DNA of 64,000 nt, taken from assembly GCA_951406725.2 (NCBI GenBank), contig OX597814.1, positions 217,186,001 to 217,250,000 on the forward strand, read 5' to 3'. The notes under the pieces were generated by a model that did no database searches, was not told the DNA's origin, and saw only the letters and a list, made by a program, of their open reading frames with translations. This document shows positions 5,730 through 58,862 of the stretch, in pieces. Every line of letters starts with the position of its first letter. Positions within the stretch are counted from its first letter, which is position 1. Source of the DNA: Octopus vulgaris. Its lineage: Eukaryota. Made by a program: the position numbers and the translations under genes.

Positions 5730-5812
5730 TTTTCCTGATGAGAAGGCGGCATAATGCACCCCTTATTCCTTCGAAATTAGGAATATGCAGCCTTCGAAAC
5801 ATATGTCGAAAA
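5730..5812 (+). ncRNA. Type I hammerhead ribozyme motif, canonical core
   Basis: Stem I uuuuc/gaaaa; CUGAUGA 5735-5741; stem II gaaggc-g-gcaua/uaugc-a-gccuuc; GAAA 5796-5799; palindromic stem III ACAUAUGU; GUC triplet 5805-5807. Confidence 0.85.
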
Positions 5813-5861
5813 TAAAATAAAGGAATTTTGTTAATTCGTCGCTCAACTCCATTCTTTCATT

Positions 5862-5864
<3 letters not shown>

Positions 5865-5893
<29 letters not shown>

Positions 5894-10775: not shown

Positions 10776-11541
10776 AAGCTCTGACTGCGTATACATACAG
10801 CAATGACGTTCCAGATAAGACGACCGTTTAATCTTTCGTGTTAAGCCGTATTTAACACATTCGACTGCTTTCAGACGAAAAAAGACATTCCGCTACAGAG
10901 ATAGTTCTGTTCACTGCGGAGAAAATTCAATTCTTCCCTTAATATGCGTGAAAACATATTTTGAGCTGTGAATAGCGTCCTTGGATTGTAGGACACATGT
11001 GTTTCTGCGCCTTTTTTTCTGTTTTTTTTTTTTTTACTACGAACATCAATTCTGTCATTAACAACCCGATAAGAACGAGATTATTCTTATCAAAACAAAT
11101 ACGGTGCATTTGCTGATGTACGTAAAGGTTTGTTACTATTTCTGCAGCGAAATATCTTTTCACTCCCGAACATGTTAAATACAACTTTACACGAATATAT
11201 TTTATTCAACGCTGCTTCATTCGACATCATTTTTCAAATATTTGTTTCGAGCAGCGTATAGTGTGTCTAAGACCAACACATAAAGCCTCCTTCGTCGTCT
11301 CGTTCATGTACTTGTTTTATCATTGAATATTACTTACGGCCTGATCGACTTCAATCTATGCCTTATATGATAAATGTTTATTAACTTGCGCATTAAGGCG
11401 AGGGAAGACTGGATCGGAAGAACGTTAAGGAAAAAGAAACAATGTTTAGAACAGATTAAATTCTCGAGCAAAATGAGAGTCACTGTACAAATGAGGGCCA
11501 TTGTACAAATGAGGGCCATTGTACAAATCAACAGCATCAAT

Positions 11542-11931
11542 GGAAATGGAAGCACTCTGTCGGTTACGACGACGAGGGTTCCGGTTGATCCGAATCAACG
11601 GAACAGCCTGCTCGTGAAATTAACGTGTAAGTGGCTGAGCACTCCACAGACACGTGTACCCTTAACGCAGTTCTCGGGGATATTCAGCGTGACACAGAGA
11701 GTGACAAGGCCGGCCCTTTGAAATACAGGTACAACAGAAACAGGAAGTAAGAGTGAGAGAAAGTTGTGGTGAAAGAGTACAGCAGGGATCACCACCATCC
11801 CCTGCCGGAGCCTCGTGGAGCTTTTGGTGTTTTCGCTCAATAAACATTCACAACGCCCGGTCTGGGAATCGAAACCGCGATCCTATGACCGCGAGTCCGC
11901 TGCCTTAACCACTGGGCCATTGTGCCTCCAC
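11542..11931 (-). mobile_element. SINE family A, full length
   Basis: TSD acagcatcaat 11531-11541/11932-11942. Confidence 0.92.
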
Positions 11932-12084
11932 ACAGCATCAATATTGATAAGTGAAAATATATGTTAACTTCTTTTTTCTATAAGTATGCGATGCTCAGTT
12001 TCTTTTGATGAGAGAAGTGGTTGAGCTTGATTCCAAACCAGAGACTAACCTGAAGTTATATTTAGATACTCTGGCTATACTTAT

Positions 12085-12290
12085 TATTTCTTTATAGCCC
12101 ACAAGGACAAAGGGATTAAGTCGATTACATCGACCCCAGTGCGTAACTGGTACTTAATTTATCGACCCCCGAAAGGATGAAAGGCAAAGTCGACCTCGGC
12201 GGAATTTGAACTCAGAGCGTAACGACAGGCGAAATACGGCTACGCATTTCACCCGCGGGCGTGCTTACGTTTCTGCCAGCTCACCGCCTT
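12085..12290 (-). mobile_element. SINE family D
   Basis: Matches reverse complement of 61095-61325. Confidence 0.85.
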
Positions 12291-12876
12291 ACGTACTATG
12301 GCTATACATATGACACAAGAGAAATGTTGCGTTTTATCTTTTGTTTGTATTTAAGGACATGCATTTGAAGAAGAAAAAATTGGTGCGCCGCTTACAATTT
12401 TCTAAACAAAAATTAGAATAGTGTGTTTAGAATAACTGAAGAAATTCAAGCAACTTATCATTTGAGCAAATGGATAACAAAATACAAAAAAAAAACCAAA
12501 AACAAAAAGCAAAAAAACCCCCTACCTTTGAAAGTTGAGGCTTGCCATGGTTATAATTTAATGAGAACTGAAAAGAATATAAAAACAATTTGAAACAAAT
12601 TAGATAACAGTGATTCACTTTTATAGCGGTACTGAGATTATTATTCCTATAACACTTTCTAAATTTGAATGAAATTATACCAGAAGGCTATCGTATCAAC
12701 ATGTTATGAGTTAATGCGTCAGATACAAATTAAAGACACAGCAAAAGATGTAGTTTAATGTTTGCGTCGTATAAATAAAACTCAGCTTTTTATCGTATCG
12801 TTCAGTAACTGCTGGGAGATAAGAAACTCACACGGTTATTTTGGTAAGTGGCAATCTATATGGTATCTATATTCAA

Positions 12877-13259
12877 GTGGAGGCGCAATGGCCCAGTGGT
12901 TAGGGCAGCGGACTCGCGGTCATAGGATCGCGGTTTCGATTCCCAGACCGGGCGTTGTGAGTGTTTATTGAGCGAAAACGCCTAAAGCTCCACGAGGCTC
13001 CGGCAGGAATGGTGGTGATCCCTGCTGTACTTTTTCACCACAACTTTCTCTCACTCTTACTTCCTGTTTCTGTTGTACCTGTATTTCAAAGGGCCGGCCT
13101 TGTCACTCTCTGTGTCACGCTGAATATCCCCGAGAACTACGTTAAGGGTGCACGTGTCTGTGGAGTGCTCAGCCACTTACACGTTAATTTCACGAACAGG
13201 CTGTTCCGTTGATTCGGATCAACCGGAACCCTCATCGTCGTAACCGACGGAGTGCTTCC
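12877..13259 (+). mobile_element. SINE family A, full length
   Basis: TSD atctatattcaa 12865-12876/13260-13271. Confidence 0.92.
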
Positions 13260-13349
13260 ATCTATATTCAAACACACGCGTGTAGACATATTAGCTTTTC
13301 CCCTCTATATTTGTAATACTGCTCTCTAATATTGATTTCACCATTTTTC

Positions 13350-13790
13350 CGTAAAGCCAACGATTTCAGGGGAGGGGTAAGTCGATTAAATCGACCCCCA
13401 ATGTTTAACTGGTACTTATTTTATCGATCCTGAAAGGATGAAAGACGATGTCGACCTCGGTGGAATTTGAACTCAGAACGTGAAGGCGGATGAAATCGCC
13501 GCTAAGCCTCTTGCTCGACGTGCTAATGATTCTGCCGGTTCGCCGTTTTGCTGATCTCTGACATTAGATCGAAGATTCAGGCGGCGAGCTGGCAGAACCG
13601 TTAGCACGCCGGGTGAAATGTTTAGCGGCATTTCGTCCGACCTCTCGTTCTGAGTTCAAATACAGCCGAGTCAACTTTTGCCTTTCATCCTTTCGGAGTT
13701 GATAAAACAAGTAGCCGAGGATTGGGTTCGAAGTAAGCGACTCACCTCACCACCCAAAATTGTTGGCCTTGTGCCAAAATTTGAAACCAA
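13350..13790. mobile_element. Two head-to-head SINE family D copies (13350-13545 minus; 13578-13790 plus)
   Basis: gtcgacctcggtggaatttgaactcagaacg and ggcggcgagctggcagaaccgttagcacgccggg motifs. Confidence 0.8.
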
Positions 13791-19726: not shown

Positions 19727-22217
19727 GTATCAGACTGCCAAAAGAGAAGCTAGGAGACAGGTTTATTTAGCCAGAGGGGAAGCAGATAAGAAAAAATTTG
19801 CCAATGTTCTGCGCCGTGAGGACCAAAGACTTGAGGTATTTCGCGTTGCAAGACAGTGTGCGAGAGAGAATCGTGATGTGGTAGGAGAGAAATGTGTTCG
19901 CATGGATGATGGTTCACTTGCGCTAAATGAGGATGCAAAGAGAGAGGTTTGGGACGCCACTATGAAAGGTTGCTGAATAAAGAAAATGAATGGGATAAAG
20001 AGAGTCTGCCGAATGTCGACTCAACAGAGGGACCAGCTATCCGAGTTGGCAGTTCCTTGGTAGTTAAGGTAATAAGAGGCATGAAGACAGGGAAAGCCCC
20101 AGGCCCATCAGGAATCACTGCAGAGATGCTCAAAATATCTGGTAGTGTCGGCTATAACCTAGTCACCCGTATAGTTAACCAGGTGATACACGAAGGAGTC
20201 ATACCCAATGACTGTGTAGCAGCATAATAGTCAACTGCTACAAAGGTAAAGGTGACGCCCTAGATACAAATAACTACAGGGGTATCAAGCTGCTGGATCA
20301 GGTAATGAAGGTTACGGAGAGGGTCATAGCCCAACTAATTAGAGAGAGAGTTAGTTCAGATGAGATGCAGTTTGGATTCGTGCCAGGGAAAAGCACCACT
20401 GATGCCATATTCCTGGTAAGACAGCTGCAGGAGAAATATCTAGCCAAAGATAAGCCCCTGTACCTGGCTTTCGTTGACATTGAGAAAGCCTTCGACAGGG
20501 TCCCTCAATCCCTTATCTGGTGGTCAATGAGGAAACTAGGGATAGATGAATGGTTAGTCAGAGCTGTGCAAGCCATGTACAGGGACGCTGCTAGTAAGGT
20601 GAGGGTTGGCAACGAGTACAGTGAAGAATTCCGGGTAGAGGTAGGAGTCCACCAAGGTTCAGTCCTCAGGCCCCCCTATTTATCGTAGTCCTCCAGGCAA
20701 TAACGAAGGAATTCAAGACAGGATGCTCCTGGGAGCTCCTCTATGCTGATGACCTTGCTCTAATTGCTGAGTCACTATCAGAACTGGAGGAGAAGTTTCA
20801 AGTGTGGAAGCAAGGATTAGAATCGAAGGGCCTTAGAGTCAACCTAGCTAAAACCAAAGTCCTAATAAGTAGGAAGGTAGACAAGTCACAAACGCCTTCA
20901 GGTAGATGGCCTTGCTCGATCTGTAGGAAAGGCGTAGGTAGAAACTCTATAAGATGCACCAAGTGTAAGCTATGGACACATAAGAGATGCACCAACGTTG
21001 AGGGAAGGCTAACTAGGAAGATAGTTTTTGTATGTGGCAGATGCACAGGAGCAATAAACACTGAAAATGCGCAGAGAGCAACTTCCGTCACATTCCAGGG
21101 AGAAAAACTAGAAATAGTTGATAGCTTCCGTTACCTAGGTGACCAAGTCAGTAGCGGGGGCGGGTGTGTTGAAAGTGTAACTGCTAGAGTAAGAATAGCT
21201 TGGGCAAAGTTCAGAGAGCTCTTACCTCTGTTAGGGACAAAAGGCCTCTCGCTCAGAGTAAAAGGCAGACTGTATGACGCATGTGTGCAAACAGCCATGC
21301 TACATGGCAGTGAAACATGGGCCGTGACTGCTGAGGATATGCGTAAGCTCGCAAGAAATGAAGCCAGTATGCTCCGATGGATGTGTAATGTCAGTGTTCA
21401 TACTCGACAGAGTGTAAGTACCTTGAGAGAAAAGTTGGACCTAAGAAGCATCAGTTGCGGTGTGCAGGAGAGACGTTTTCGCTGGTATGGCCATGTGGCG
21501 AGAATGGATGAAGATAGTTGTGTGAAAAGGTGCCACACCCTAGCTGTTGAAGGAACCTGTGGAAGAGGTAGACCCAGGAAAACCTGGGACGAGGTGGTGA
21601 AGCACGACCTTCGAACTTTAGGTCTCACCAAGGAAATGACTAGTGGCCGGGACCTTTGGAAATATGCTGTGCGTGAGAAGACCCGGCAGGACAAGTGAGA
21701 CCATAACCCATGGCCTCAGTCCACTTATGCATACCTCTCCTTCTTGGGACACAAAACTCTACTTGTGAAGACCTGTTGAGGCAAGTGAAAATCAAAATCA
21801 AAATCAAAATTCAAAATCGATCAACATGAATGGAAATTGTAGCTGTGATACCAGCGCCGGTGGCACATAAGAGAACCATCCGAACGTGGCCGTTGCCAGC
21901 GCCGCCCCGACTGGCTTCCGTGCCGGTGGCACGTAAAAAGCACCATCCGATCGTGGCCGTTTGCCAGCCTCGCCTGGCCTCCGTGCCGGTGGCACGTAAA
22001 AAGCACCATCCGATCGTGGCCGTTCCCAGCCTTGTCTGGCACCTGTGCCGGTGGCACGTAAAAATCACCCACTACACTCATGGAGTGGTTGGCGTTAGAA
22101 AGGGCATCCAGCCGTAGAAACACTGCCAGATCAGGCTGGGCCTGGTGCAGCCTTCTAGCTTCCCAGACCCCAGTAGAACCGTCCAACCCATGCCAGCATG
22201 GAAAGCGGACGCTAAAC

Positions 22218-37396: not shown

Positions 37397-38005
37397 ACAC
37401 ATGTATACACATGTATATGTACGCGTATATATTTCATATATTTATGTCCGTATATGTATATATTTGTGTGTGTGTACTTGTGCATGTATGTATACACACA
37501 CAAACTACACATACACGCAAATACCCACGTATATATTTACTCAGAACAAAGACGAACATATACGAACCTCCTTAATATACTTTTTTTTTGCTGTATTTTA
37601 AGAAAACTTACAAACTAGATAGTTTCAAACTGGGAATATATACTACTACTACCTTTTAAACAGTTTACAGACGGCCACCAGATGTGATGCAGATGACTCT
37701 AGTTGCTGTCGCTTTTCTACGCATTATATTAAGTTATCACAGTCGTTTGAAAACGGCTGTTAACTTCATAAAAAGTGTCGTCACTTCATTTGTTGCTTTT
37801 CCTCCCATTTTATAAATAAGAAACTGAAGTTGTAATTCGATTGGTTTCAGATGGTGTGGAAAATCTAAACCAAACTGTCTCGTAAGTCAGCAAAAGTTTG
37901 ACAACTTATCATACCTTTTGATGCAAATTATTCATAGCTTTATTTACTTCGAGAACCACCGTTCTTATAAGGAATTATTTCTAAATTTAAGACGTCAACA
38001 TTATA

Positions 38006-38886
38006 CAGGGTGTTCGGGTTAAATTTGACAGTTTGCATAAAAAGAAAAGAACACACAAAATACCATCCAAAAGGGAAAAGTATTTCGAAAACTTTTCTAA
38101 ATATTAAGAAGTTTATAGGTGGGAAATAACAGTTTACTCAAAGTAGCTGCCCTTAGCTTCTACCTGTGGCCTCAGGACGCCTCTGAAACCTGATGAATGT
38201 GTTCCTCGTTGTATCCCTGGGAAGATCTTTGAATATCTCTTTGATCATGGCCTCCATCTCGGCCTTGGTGTTGCAGTCAGAGCAGTTGGTGTTTTTCTGA
38301 ATCGCGCTAAACACATAATAACCCATGGCATTACAACCAGGGGAATTAGAAGGTCAGAAATTGGAGTTTATGAAGTCGTAAAAATTCTCCTAGAACCACT
38401 TTTGACTCTTTCCGGAAGTATTGCAAGAGCCGAATCCGTCTGCTACATATATGGGCTTCAAGCAACAACCCTCTCCAGGCAGGGATTGACCACAGTCCGC
38501 AGCAGATTCACGTTGCCGTCTGAATTGAGCTTAAGGCCCTTTTTAAAGATGTGAGGCGGCATGACGTTGCCCGCCCAAAGACCATCATAGCTCGGGGAAA
38601 ATTTAGTTTTCATGATGTCCATGTCACATCATACAGCCGTTACAGTGTTCACAGAGCATTGAGCAATGGTCATGGTGTCAGCATTTTGATACCTCGCACG
38701 AATCATCATAACACAGGTAACTCTTTTCAATATTCAGATGCATTCCACTGCTCCATTCCAGCTAACTTCTTCTCATGCATAACTTTAATCTGTATACTCT
38801 CCAATGCTGTTGACTGTTCATCAATACATGGAGCGGTTCCAGAGAAAAGGAGACACAAAAATCGTCTAATTCATTCCTAGCACCCA

Positions 38887-38887: not shown

Positions 38888-38959
<72 letters not shown>

Positions 38960-38989
38960 CATATATACATACATATATATATATAATAT

Positions 38990-39039
<50 letters not shown>

Positions 39040-39044
39040 ATATG

Positions 39045-39120
<76 letters not shown>

Positions 39121-39121
<1 letters not shown>

Positions 39122-39870
39122 ATATTAATAAAAGGAATTCCAACCTTGTCTGATTTTCACGTTTTATTTACAATCTTATAAATATTAGATAATATAATAT
39201 AATAAAATAAAATAAAATAATAGAATGTTAAATGTTCATTCTGATTGAACTAGTACTTTCATGCATTAAATTCTGCAATCTTCAGGTTCATGTAGTAGTG
39301 GTGACAGTCATGCTTCACAATTTTTGACTGTAGCGAGATGGTTAAATCTGTGCCTTAAATACACCTGTGTAGGCTCCAGATTGTTAGGTTTTGCAAACTG
39401 TATTCTGACCAATCAGTGTGTAGTATCACTCAATTACTTAAGCTGATTGGTTTAGGCGTCACGCTTTGTTGAACATGTCAAGAGTCCCGTATCTTAACCC
39501 TGGCCGAGGCAGCAATTGTTGGGCTATTTTTAGAAATGTTGTAAATAGCCTTTGTCAGGGATTTTTATATTTCAATTGTCATCATCATCATTGTCAGCAC
39601 CTTAATTATTGTTGCTAGTGGTGATATTGGTGGCAAAAGAACTTTTAACCCTAAATAAGATAATTTTCCTGCTATCTTCATCTTGATCACCTTTAGTATT
39701 GTTGTTGTTGTTAGTGGTCATGGTCGTAGCAGTAGAAGTAGTACCTCTAAGTATTATTATTATTGCTTATTTAGCTTGGGTTCGAATTTATCAATATTAT
39801 ATTATATCATTATAAGATTATAAATAAAACGTGAAAATCAGACAAGGTTGGAATTCCTTTTATTAATATA
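39121..39870 (-). mobile_element. 750-bp non-coding element with 60-bp inverted ends and a hammerhead (Penelope pLTR-like)
   Basis: 39121-39180 vs 39811-39870 match 59/60 as inverted repeats; (TA)n tracts nearby on both sides. Confidence 0.8.
39246..39290 (-). ncRNA. Minimal type I hammerhead ribozyme motif
   Basis: ugaac-CUGAAGA-u-ugca-gaauuuaa-ugca-u-GAAA-guac-UA-guuca: 5-bp stem I, 4-bp stem II, palindromic stem III AGUACU, CUA triplet. Confidence 0.8.
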
Positions 39871-39897
39871 TTCATCTATACACAATCAGACACACCC

Positions 39898-39974
<77 letters not shown>

Positions 39975-39981
<7 letters not shown>

Positions 39982-40214
39982 AAATGAAGAAAATGCTGAC
40001 AAAATAATTTAAGTAATTTAAGTAATTTAATTAGGTGAAAGTTCTTTTTACCGGTTGCGCATTTGTTATGCTTATCAAAAGTTTCTTCCTCTTATAAGAG
40101 GAAAAAACTTTTGATAAGCATAACAAATGCGCAACCGGTAAAAAGAACTTTCACCTAATTAAATTACTTAAATTACTTAAATTATTTTGTCAGCATTTTC
40201 TTCATTTCCTTTTT
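39975..40214. repeat. 240-bp spacerless palindrome next to (TA)n
   Basis: 120-bp arms, centre ctta|taag 40094/40095, single mismatch 40085/40104. Confidence 0.95.
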
Positions 40215-40248
40215 ATATATCACAACTCGTGTTCCACATCTCCTTTTT

Positions 40249-44080: not shown

Positions 44081-44340
44081 CATGTACAATTGGCCTATCC
44101 AATTGCGTTACACTGCTAAATCTAGCGGGTATTTAAACGATTTGTTCGTGGTTGGTTAGAGGGTTAGATGTGGTGCTGAAGAAGAAGCAATAATTACTGA
44201 AATATGCATATACACCCATTACCCATATTTGGTATCTTCGATTGCATTCTCTAGATACAAGTATTCATATACGAAACGTTGTAGCTCTCAGTGCTGGCTC
44301 TAAATTCTGTAGCATATCTGTAGAGATTACTTCAAAAAGT

Positions 44341-44411
<71 letters not shown>

Positions 44412-53693: not shown

Positions 53694-54921
53694 TTTCCTA
53701 TATCAGAATGCTTCACAGAGATTTCATTTGTGTTTCGATTCTGGTAGAGAGAGAGAAAGAGCAGCGTGTTGCGTTATTCTCATTTTGATTCCTTTACTGA
53801 ACTGGAAAGAGGAAGGAGACGCTTTCCCTACGACATGAAAATAGCTTCGTGGTTGGAATTCAAAAAGAAAGGTTTTCAACGAATGAATACCGCATGTACA
53901 CACACATTTTATCTGCACCACAAATAACCGAATAGTTCAAGTAGACGAAGAGTTATATTAAATAAGCTTACAACAACTTACAACTTAAATATATGTGCTG
54001 TATGAACGGAAGGAAGACCGGACTGAAAAATAATTTGAGGTAATTATTGTTTTATGCATATATGCATCACACACACACATTATATATATATATATATATA
54101 CATAGAAGTAAATATATGGCACAACGAAGTACCGATATTTACCTATCTAGGTATTTCATCTTTCAGATGTTCTCCCTGGAGGTAAGACAATTTTTTTCAA
54201 GTTTGTTGCACACACGCATTTTTGCTAGTACATACGCGGTGAAGCTATACATTAGCGTCGTATTTATTATGTTCGCTATTTTCCAGTAAATATCGGTACT
54301 TTGTTATGCCATATATTTACTTCTATGTATAATTTTCCCTCACGGGCTATTCTTTACTGGAAAGCAATGCTCTCGTATTGCATTACTATTTTTATTATAT
54401 ATATATATATATATAAATGTATGCATATTTGCATGTATGAATACGGCGTCGAATTAGCAGAAGCGTTAGTGCTTTGGTTAGAATGAATTACTGCTTATGT
54501 TTTAACTAACTGCATTCTGAGTCCAAATCTCATATAGTCAACGTAAAAAAAAATCAGAAAGAAAAGAAACCGGTGCATCTGAGTAGAATCTGTGATAAGC
54601 TTGAGAATTCCTTATGTAAGTGTCCGAATACTCGGATGCTGCTTATTCAAGTCGCCCAGATTTAATGAGGCTGAACAGTGACCAGCTCAACGTATATACT
54701 ACACCAAATGACGGAGAGTGACTTATGGACTTACAGCGTAAACAAACGAGTACCACATATTTAACAATACTCAACACCTTACACAACAAAACTCCACAAA
54801 ATACCATTTTTAAGGAACCGTTTCCGTTTTCCTCAAAAATCCGTGGCACCAAATAACGCGAAGATGCATCTACAGTTCAGACAGACTCACTTATCCGAAA
54901 ACTCACACTCCTTACACATTG

Positions 54922-58630: not shown

Positions 58631-58654
58631 ATTTATTTATTTATCTATTTATAT

Positions 58655-58810
58655 ATCTATTTACTAATATATAGCAGAGGTAACAGAGTTACTCAAGGTC
58701 CGAGAGTTTCCTGCGTTGGCACTTATCAAAGTAATTTGATAAGCGCCGACGCACAGAACTCTCGGACCTTGAGTCATTCTGTGACTTCTGCTAAATGTTA
58801 ATAAAAATAT
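58655..58810. repeat. Imperfect fold-back of a hammerhead-like unit
   Basis: Arms around gtaa 58731-58734; third partial copy at 1110-1165. Confidence 0.88.
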
Positions 58811-58862
58811 ACATATACTCATATTTTGAGCTCTATTTTTCCTGTTCGCATCAACGTATGTT

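Follow-up and report, generated by a model that had tools for sequence, protein, structure and literature searches.

The element described here lies at positions 39121-39898 of the window (the whole 64-kb stretch of DNA analysed) and is bounded by microsatellite sequence on both sides, with a (TA)n/(TG) tract on the left (38889-39120), which is likely its insertion target, and a (TA)n tract on the right (39899-39974). Most of it consists of a 5'-truncated Penelope-like body of 676 nt on the minus strand (39121-39796), which includes the end of an open reading frame, a 3' UTR with simple repeats, and a pLTR module. The 3' terminus of the body (39121-39200, minus strand) forms the direct arm, has no tail and abuts the (TA)n tract, with an AATAAA motif (39163-39168, minus strand) 42 nt upstream of the 3' end. 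A second, inverted copy of the 3' end is present at 39794-39870 on the plus strand; it is 77 nt long, severely 5'-truncated and without a hammerhead, and meets the body head-to-head with a 3-nt overlap of microhomology (39794-39796), the arm aligning as far as 39794 and the body matching the family as far as 39796. It is followed by a one-sided AC-rich extension of 26-28 nt (39871-39898, plus strand), referred to here as the tail. The copy as a whole carries a single hammerhead and has no coding capacity.

The original prediction had described a MITE-looking but probably retroelement-derived insertion at 39121-39870, with near-perfect inverted ends of about 60 bp, an AATAAA motif and (TA)n flanks. 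The inverted ends are as described, with 60 of the first 61 bases matching between 39121-39200 and 39794-39870, followed by a poorer AT-rich remainder that includes a 3-nt gap; the blastn alignment as a whole has 92.5% identity across its 80 columns (E 3.7e-28). The two arms are not pristine, differing by a single substitution and by indels towards the inner side, and blastn finds no further copy of these ends elsewhere in the 64-kb window. AATAAA is found at 39168-39163 on the minus strand and (TA)n on both sides, and the predicted start also holds, but the right-hand limit does not, as 28 additional bases take the element to 39898.

Within the pLTR, near the 3' end of the element and on its sense strand, is a minimal type I hammerhead ribozyme motif with a palindromic stem III (39246-39290, minus strand). 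Stem I has 5 bp, formed by pairing of 39290-39286 with 39250-39246, and is followed by the core CUGAAGA (39285-39279, with core U4 at 39284), an unpaired U, and a 4-bp stem II around an 8-nt loop; the 3' part has a U, GAAA (39260-39257), and a palindromic AGUACU that replaces stem/loop III. A complete minimal hammerhead had been predicted at this position, and a descriptor search recovers all of the core parts, with the cut predicted at 39251/39250. Helix II is framed by U.U and then U-A, and the G10.1-C11.1 closing pair is absent. When the 64-kb window was locally shuffled 40 times, the descriptor found no minimal motif in any of the shuffles, and a looser descriptor gave three matches in 40 shuffles and three in the real window. 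Rfam returns no match across the window at gathering scores, and the hammerhead family is not among the 38 weak matches at E≤10; weak miRNA matches were rejected, as they fall on the neighbouring palindrome and (TA)n. Free folding of an 81-nt piece is no better than that of its shuffles (z +1.0), which is unsurprising given the short stems of minimal hammerheads. The hammerhead pattern has no match in metagenome contigs.

The motif has much in common with the minimal PLE hammerheads described in the available sections of Cervera and de la Pena 2014 (PMC4209133), which are likewise type I, with a 5-bp helix I, an extra base after CUGANGA and a small palindromic helix III, and which occur mostly as single motifs in truncated copies. 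It differs in the short 4-bp helix II without G10.1-C11.1, a pair called highly conserved there, and in the likely existence of a subfamily with U4C (see below). In that study no cleavage was detected for minimal PLE motifs present singly, whereas dimers were weakly active, and cleavage by the anole PLE hammerhead required protein (PMC11167929); in these two accounts, as far as the available text goes, PLE hammerhead activity in vitro is weak, protein-assisted, and dispensable for insertion. Given that this copy carries one hammerhead and that published single motifs are inactive, the monomer is unlikely to cleave alone, and a cleavage assay would probably be negative.

Upstream of the hammerhead is a predicted promoter region, with a TATA-like TATTTAA (39355-39361, minus strand) and an inverted pair of CCAAT boxes (39408-39416 and 39443-39451) located where the original prediction had placed them. 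Both boxes are variant-free among 40 of the 59 variant rows from the sequencing runs described below. The second box (39441-39452) is duplicated in some family copies, with a joint depth of 577 in run X1.

Immediately next to where the inverted arm ends internally, the minus strand encodes IDKFEPKLNKQ and a stop codon (39760-39795), which, compared by eye with the rows available from Fig. S7 of PMC8557442, are likely the last 11 codons of a GIY-YIG endonuclease, its terminal motif alone being visible. The claim that the element has no ORF is thus correct for long frames but misses this stub (39795-39760). A 30-letter consensus upstream of 39796, examined by eye, is stop-free and in the codon frame of the window in four of four runs, and places R-x3-E-x2-F ahead of I-x4-P-x-L-N. 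Ten of the 17 positions of the combined motif are identical by eye to the Nematis_Pp_Pris row of Fig. S7 (PMC8557442), the motif being assembled from 11 window codons and 10 codons read by eye from contig loose ends; upstream family sequence spans 30 letters only, with one contig reaching 56. The pattern [IV]-x4-P-x-L-N occurs three times across the window's 127,996 codon positions; only here does a stop follow within six codons. Among 40 of the 59 variant rows, the single variant in 39763-39796 is 39766 C>T, which is synonymous (24, 31 and 27 contigs), and of the differences among the four upstream consensuses two are silent and a third is conservative, with a non-conservative one at the poorly supported far end. 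In the 34 of 217 stop-free window frames searched with Pfam there is no GIY-YIG match, and RVT_1 is present only in a separate LINE (20212-21695). Neither an RT, a GIY-YIG core nor a full-length element of this kind was seen in the window or the contig ends, and the ORF-end stretch has no match in metagenome contigs. Because the family runs upstream in frame with an apparent GIY-YIG C-terminus, the source is, from its sequence, most likely a protein-coding PLE and not a dedicated non-autonomous family.

The 39121-39870 stretch, or part of it, is present in 20 of the 24 sequencing runs listed, from 12 studies and 6 organisms. Family copies were compared in four of the runs (X1, X3, X4 and X11) using contigs only; 39114-39231 was left out as repeat and is without cover, and contig cover begins at 39232. 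The comparison draws on 40 of the 59 variant rows, 15 of the 27 joints, 24 of the 540 rows of loose ends and 32 of the 4765 pieces. Single-contig depth in X3 reaches 11,000-13,700, against ~45-55 for single-copy-like contigs, a ratio that corresponds to at least a few hundred near-identical family copies; summed depth cannot be read as copy number, and it shows no steady fall towards the 5' end of the element.

Pieces stopping at 39796 are seen in all four runs (among 32 of 4765 pieces), and the loose ends past this point (24 of 540 rows) have one shared consensus in each of the four (17, 13, 11 and 1 contigs), from which it follows that the family extends upstream and that the inversion junction is not the end of the family. 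None of the 32 of 4765 pieces crosses the junction at 39794-39796, and at the inner edge of the arm (39794/39797) contigs run on into ordinary 3' body. Strand switches are found at other positions, with 39294/39539 and 39489/39663 each represented by one X3 contig at single-copy-like depth (among 15 of 27 joints); if these are head-to-head they correspond to arms of ~174 and 369 nt. Probable further cases are a fold-back close to 39323 and a joint linking 39551 to 39866. Two of the four opposite-strand joints, those at 39274/39813 and 39705/39850, were rejected as evidence of inversion, being left-arm reads placed on the right arm.

The right end of the element is also variable. Ends abut (TA)n straight after 39871 in 16, 15 and 1 contigs of X1, X3 and X11 respectively, and after 39897 in one contig of X11, and in the four runs the tail is covered at 40, 51, 76 and 49% of the summed depth of the preceding bin. 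The presence of ends with and without the extension, together with the drop in depth, indicates that the 28-nt extension is optional within the family.

A 34-nt insertion at 39661-39663 is present in a subfamily that looks older. Several pieces end within 39308-39330, 20-40 nt upstream of the hammerhead, where the three large runs show a 4-7-fold drop in summed depth. Truncation may be favoured in this interval, but depth is unreliable and climbs again at 39384.

A search of published papers turned up no description of this PLE family, which may already have an entry in repeat libraries. In an octopus repeat annotation, 31 Penelope-like families are given as recently active (PMC13282606). The consensus files of PMC8557442, including that for Hydra-1_Obim, gave no match to four short DNA probes and one peptide probe, noting that FASTA line breaks can hide matches, and one probe match inside a Naiad ORF was set aside as unrelated.

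We interpret the locus, with a probability of roughly 0.83, as a dead 5'-truncated insertion of a coding PLE with a C-terminal endonuclease, to which a short stretch of its own 3' end is joined head-to-head in inverted orientation. Craig et al. 2021 (PMC8557442) describe as typical of PLEs a neighbouring 5'-truncated copy in inverted orientation, along with a tail of 30-40 bp on one side. The view that the insert is a hammerhead-bearing Penelope-like element rather than a MITE is borne out by the variable junctions, the one-sided tail and the strand switches elsewhere in the family. The original prediction also proposed that inverted ends of variable length would point to a PLE and ends of fixed length to a MITE, and the ends prove to be variable.

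An unlikely alternative is that the element is an internally deleted non-autonomous PLE, made up of a pLTR, a 3' UTR and an endonuclease stub with no working ORF, and moved in trans by another PLE. Non-autonomous PLE derivatives do exist (PMC8557442; bioRxiv 2026.07.22.740005, both as available), depth in the three large runs stays high throughout the 570-nt interior, with only a ~3-5-fold fall from the hammerhead to the ORF end, and the short reach of the upstream sequence can be read the same way. However, the upstream letters are in frame in four of four runs, the differences in the stub are mostly silent or conservative, and heavy 5' truncation suffices to explain the absent ORF. The term non-autonomous PLE, as used in the original prediction, therefore fits this dead copy but probably not its family, which has an in-frame upstream endonuclease-like C-terminus.

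It is very improbable that the locus is a MITE with fixed TIRs, using a DNA transposase with a TA target (as Tc1/mariner) and having captured a PLE end. Like MITEs the element is short, with inverted ends (here ~77 nt), TA flanks and no long ORF, and what looks like a decayed mariner-like transposase remnant (38003-38880, minus strand; no Pfam match in four frames) lies 250 bp away, directly left of the (TA)n tract. Its ends, however, are neither fixed nor symmetrical, and they derive from the 3' terminus of a retroelement. The family as a whole does not share the inner junction, other copies switch strand at different positions, the optional extension of 28 nt is present on one side, and the 'TIR' amounts to the 3' end of the ribozyme strand with its AATAAA. 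A non-LTR retrozyme, a tandem non-coding hammerhead repeat, is a similarly poor description, sharing with this element the type I hammerhead with palindromic stem III; there is a single hammerhead here with no head-to-tail tandem units at the locus, unlike the retrozymes in the available part of bioRxiv 10.64898/2026.07.22.740005, and there is an upstream coding stub and an inverted arm with a tail. An assembly or sequencing fold-back artefact in the (TA)n-rich region is barely conceivable, since in spite of several fold-backs in (TA)n within the window and the lack of a contig bridging the junction among 32 of 4765 pieces, the arms are non-identical, only one carries the family tail, and the layout is that published for PLEs.

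A truncated insertion of a coding PLE could acquire this structure through steps extrapolated from published PLE work (PMC11167929, as available). A tandem source element would be transcribed from its pLTR, and the RT-GIY-YIG protein would nick both strands of the (TA)n tract, each nick priming reverse transcription at one of two nearby RNA sites, such that one start site would yield the end without a tail and the other the end with a tail. Both cDNAs would end early (at 676 and 105 nt) and would be joined over the 3-nt microhomology to give inverted ends resembling those of a MITE. To act, the hammerhead would have to dimerise through the palindromic stem III or be assisted by protein. In PAc (Poseidon, from Anolis carolinensis) the tail is bounded by two RT start sites, and both strands are cut and extended (Frangieh et al. 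2024, PMC11167929); the AT-rich target, AC-rich tail and protein-assisted hammerhead described in the available text are those of the model for this element. The PAc ORF starts in hammerhead stem II, whereas here the two stem II AUGs are followed by frames that close after 8 and 12 codons.

By its structural features the element belongs to the canonical C-terminal-endonuclease PLEs. With the EN+ PLEs (Penelope/Poseidon, Nematis, Neptune), as far as they are covered by the sources available, it shares the inverted 5'-truncated copy, the optional one-sided tail, the 3'-end hammerhead and a microsatellite target, although the tail of 26-28 nt is shorter than the 30-40 published for PLEs. The apparent ORF ending R-x3-E-x2-F-I-x4-P-x-L-N is like that of the available Nematis and Poseidon rows of Fig. 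S7 (PMC8557442), and the end of the PoseidonFr endonuclease resembles that of the window ORF, unlike that of Neptune, which has G-[IL]-N. There are also similarities to the Hydra-clade PLEs, which share the (TA)n target and the U...UGAA framing of helix II (found in 14 of the 34 available File S2 rows, all 14 of them Hydra-clade; PMC8557442), and of which Penelope-13_HM also has an inverted 5'-truncated copy. Hydra endonucleases, however, have a CxxC before the conserved E and an extension of ~15 residues with CxH past LN in the available rows (PMC8557442), whereas the window frame stops two residues after LN and so does not group with this clade; the Hydra-1_Obim hammerhead, as available, is also unlike that at 39246-39290. 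The Naiad/Chlamys PLEs, described as having an N-terminal endonuclease and no canonical hammerhead, are a poor match for an element with a hammerhead core and an endonuclease-like ORF end.

The element is a tidy example of known PLE debris, an ordinary and well-described type of insertion. We infer that such fold-back PLE copies can be mislabelled as MITEs, a matter that no publication addresses by title in our literature search.

The hammerhead core is complete in the window copy, as predicted, but is not fully kept across family copies. Core U4 (39284) is a C in ~62% of summed depth in X1 (421,438 of 681,859; 34 contigs), ~26% in X3 (79,265 of 310,644; 5 contigs) and ~24% in X4 (1,979 of 8,150; 4 contigs), and in none of a depth of 143 in X11, a presumed RNA run with 17 contigs in all, whose figure is given no weight here. 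The remaining hammerhead variants among 40 of the 59 variant rows are in loop 2, and one X11 contig has a stem III that is two bases longer and still palindromic. Variants at 39268 and 39301 account for 56% and 48% in X1, 26% and 24% in X3, and 9% and 4% in X4, and the similar shares at 39284, 39268 and 39301 in X1 and X3 suggest one subfamily, with linkage being unproven. CpG decay is disfavoured as the origin of the U4 difference, as the variant gains a CpG instead of losing it, and 40 of the 59 variant rows contain no mirror change at 39283; for the same reasons an inherited subfamily change is preferred, if not proven.

The U4C change considerably cuts activity in vitro yet permits viroid infection (Perreault et al., PMC3088659, as available). 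That the likely U4C subfamily has out-amplified copies with the canonical core in one host lineage is possible but doubtful. If true, it would amount to a natural experiment in which efficient cleavage is dispensable, or selected against, for Penelope-like retrotransposition in vivo. A high-copy family with both U4 and C4 cores in related hosts would bear on the role of the PLE hammerhead.

Several other insertions in the window have related features. A near-perfect fold-back at 39975-40248, in the same (TA)n tract as the element, has 120-nt arms that are 99% complementary with no spacer between them. It has extra bases on one side only (~40215-40248) and an end that resembles the 3' end of the 39121-39898 element, and it is likely a truncated fold-back with tail of another PLE family. 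A second hammerhead-like motif (5730-5865, plus strand) has CUGAUGA at 5735, a long stem II and a palindromic CAUAUG followed by AAATAAAATAAA, with (TATG)n flanks, and is likely another PLE 3' end. A third, decayed motif (44085-44345, plus strand) has CUGAAGA at 44176 and a palindromic UAUGCAUA, with an inverted CCAAT-like pair and TATTTAA upstream and (TA)n downstream, a promoter-like layout as in 39121-39898 but of a different family. Three short fold-back or inverted-end inserts lie beside (TA)n at 1219-1408, 58650-58815 and 54097-54331, and no convincing hammerhead was found in any of them.

Two 386-nt copies at 11546-11931 and 12877-13261, which are 96.6% identical, inverted and 945 nt apart, are presumably two tRNA-headed SINE copies and not one element. 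The LINE reverse transcriptase at 20212-21698 (plus strand) is frameshifted, with RVT_1 in two frames and a PHD-like cysteine cluster, and we take it to be RTE-like.
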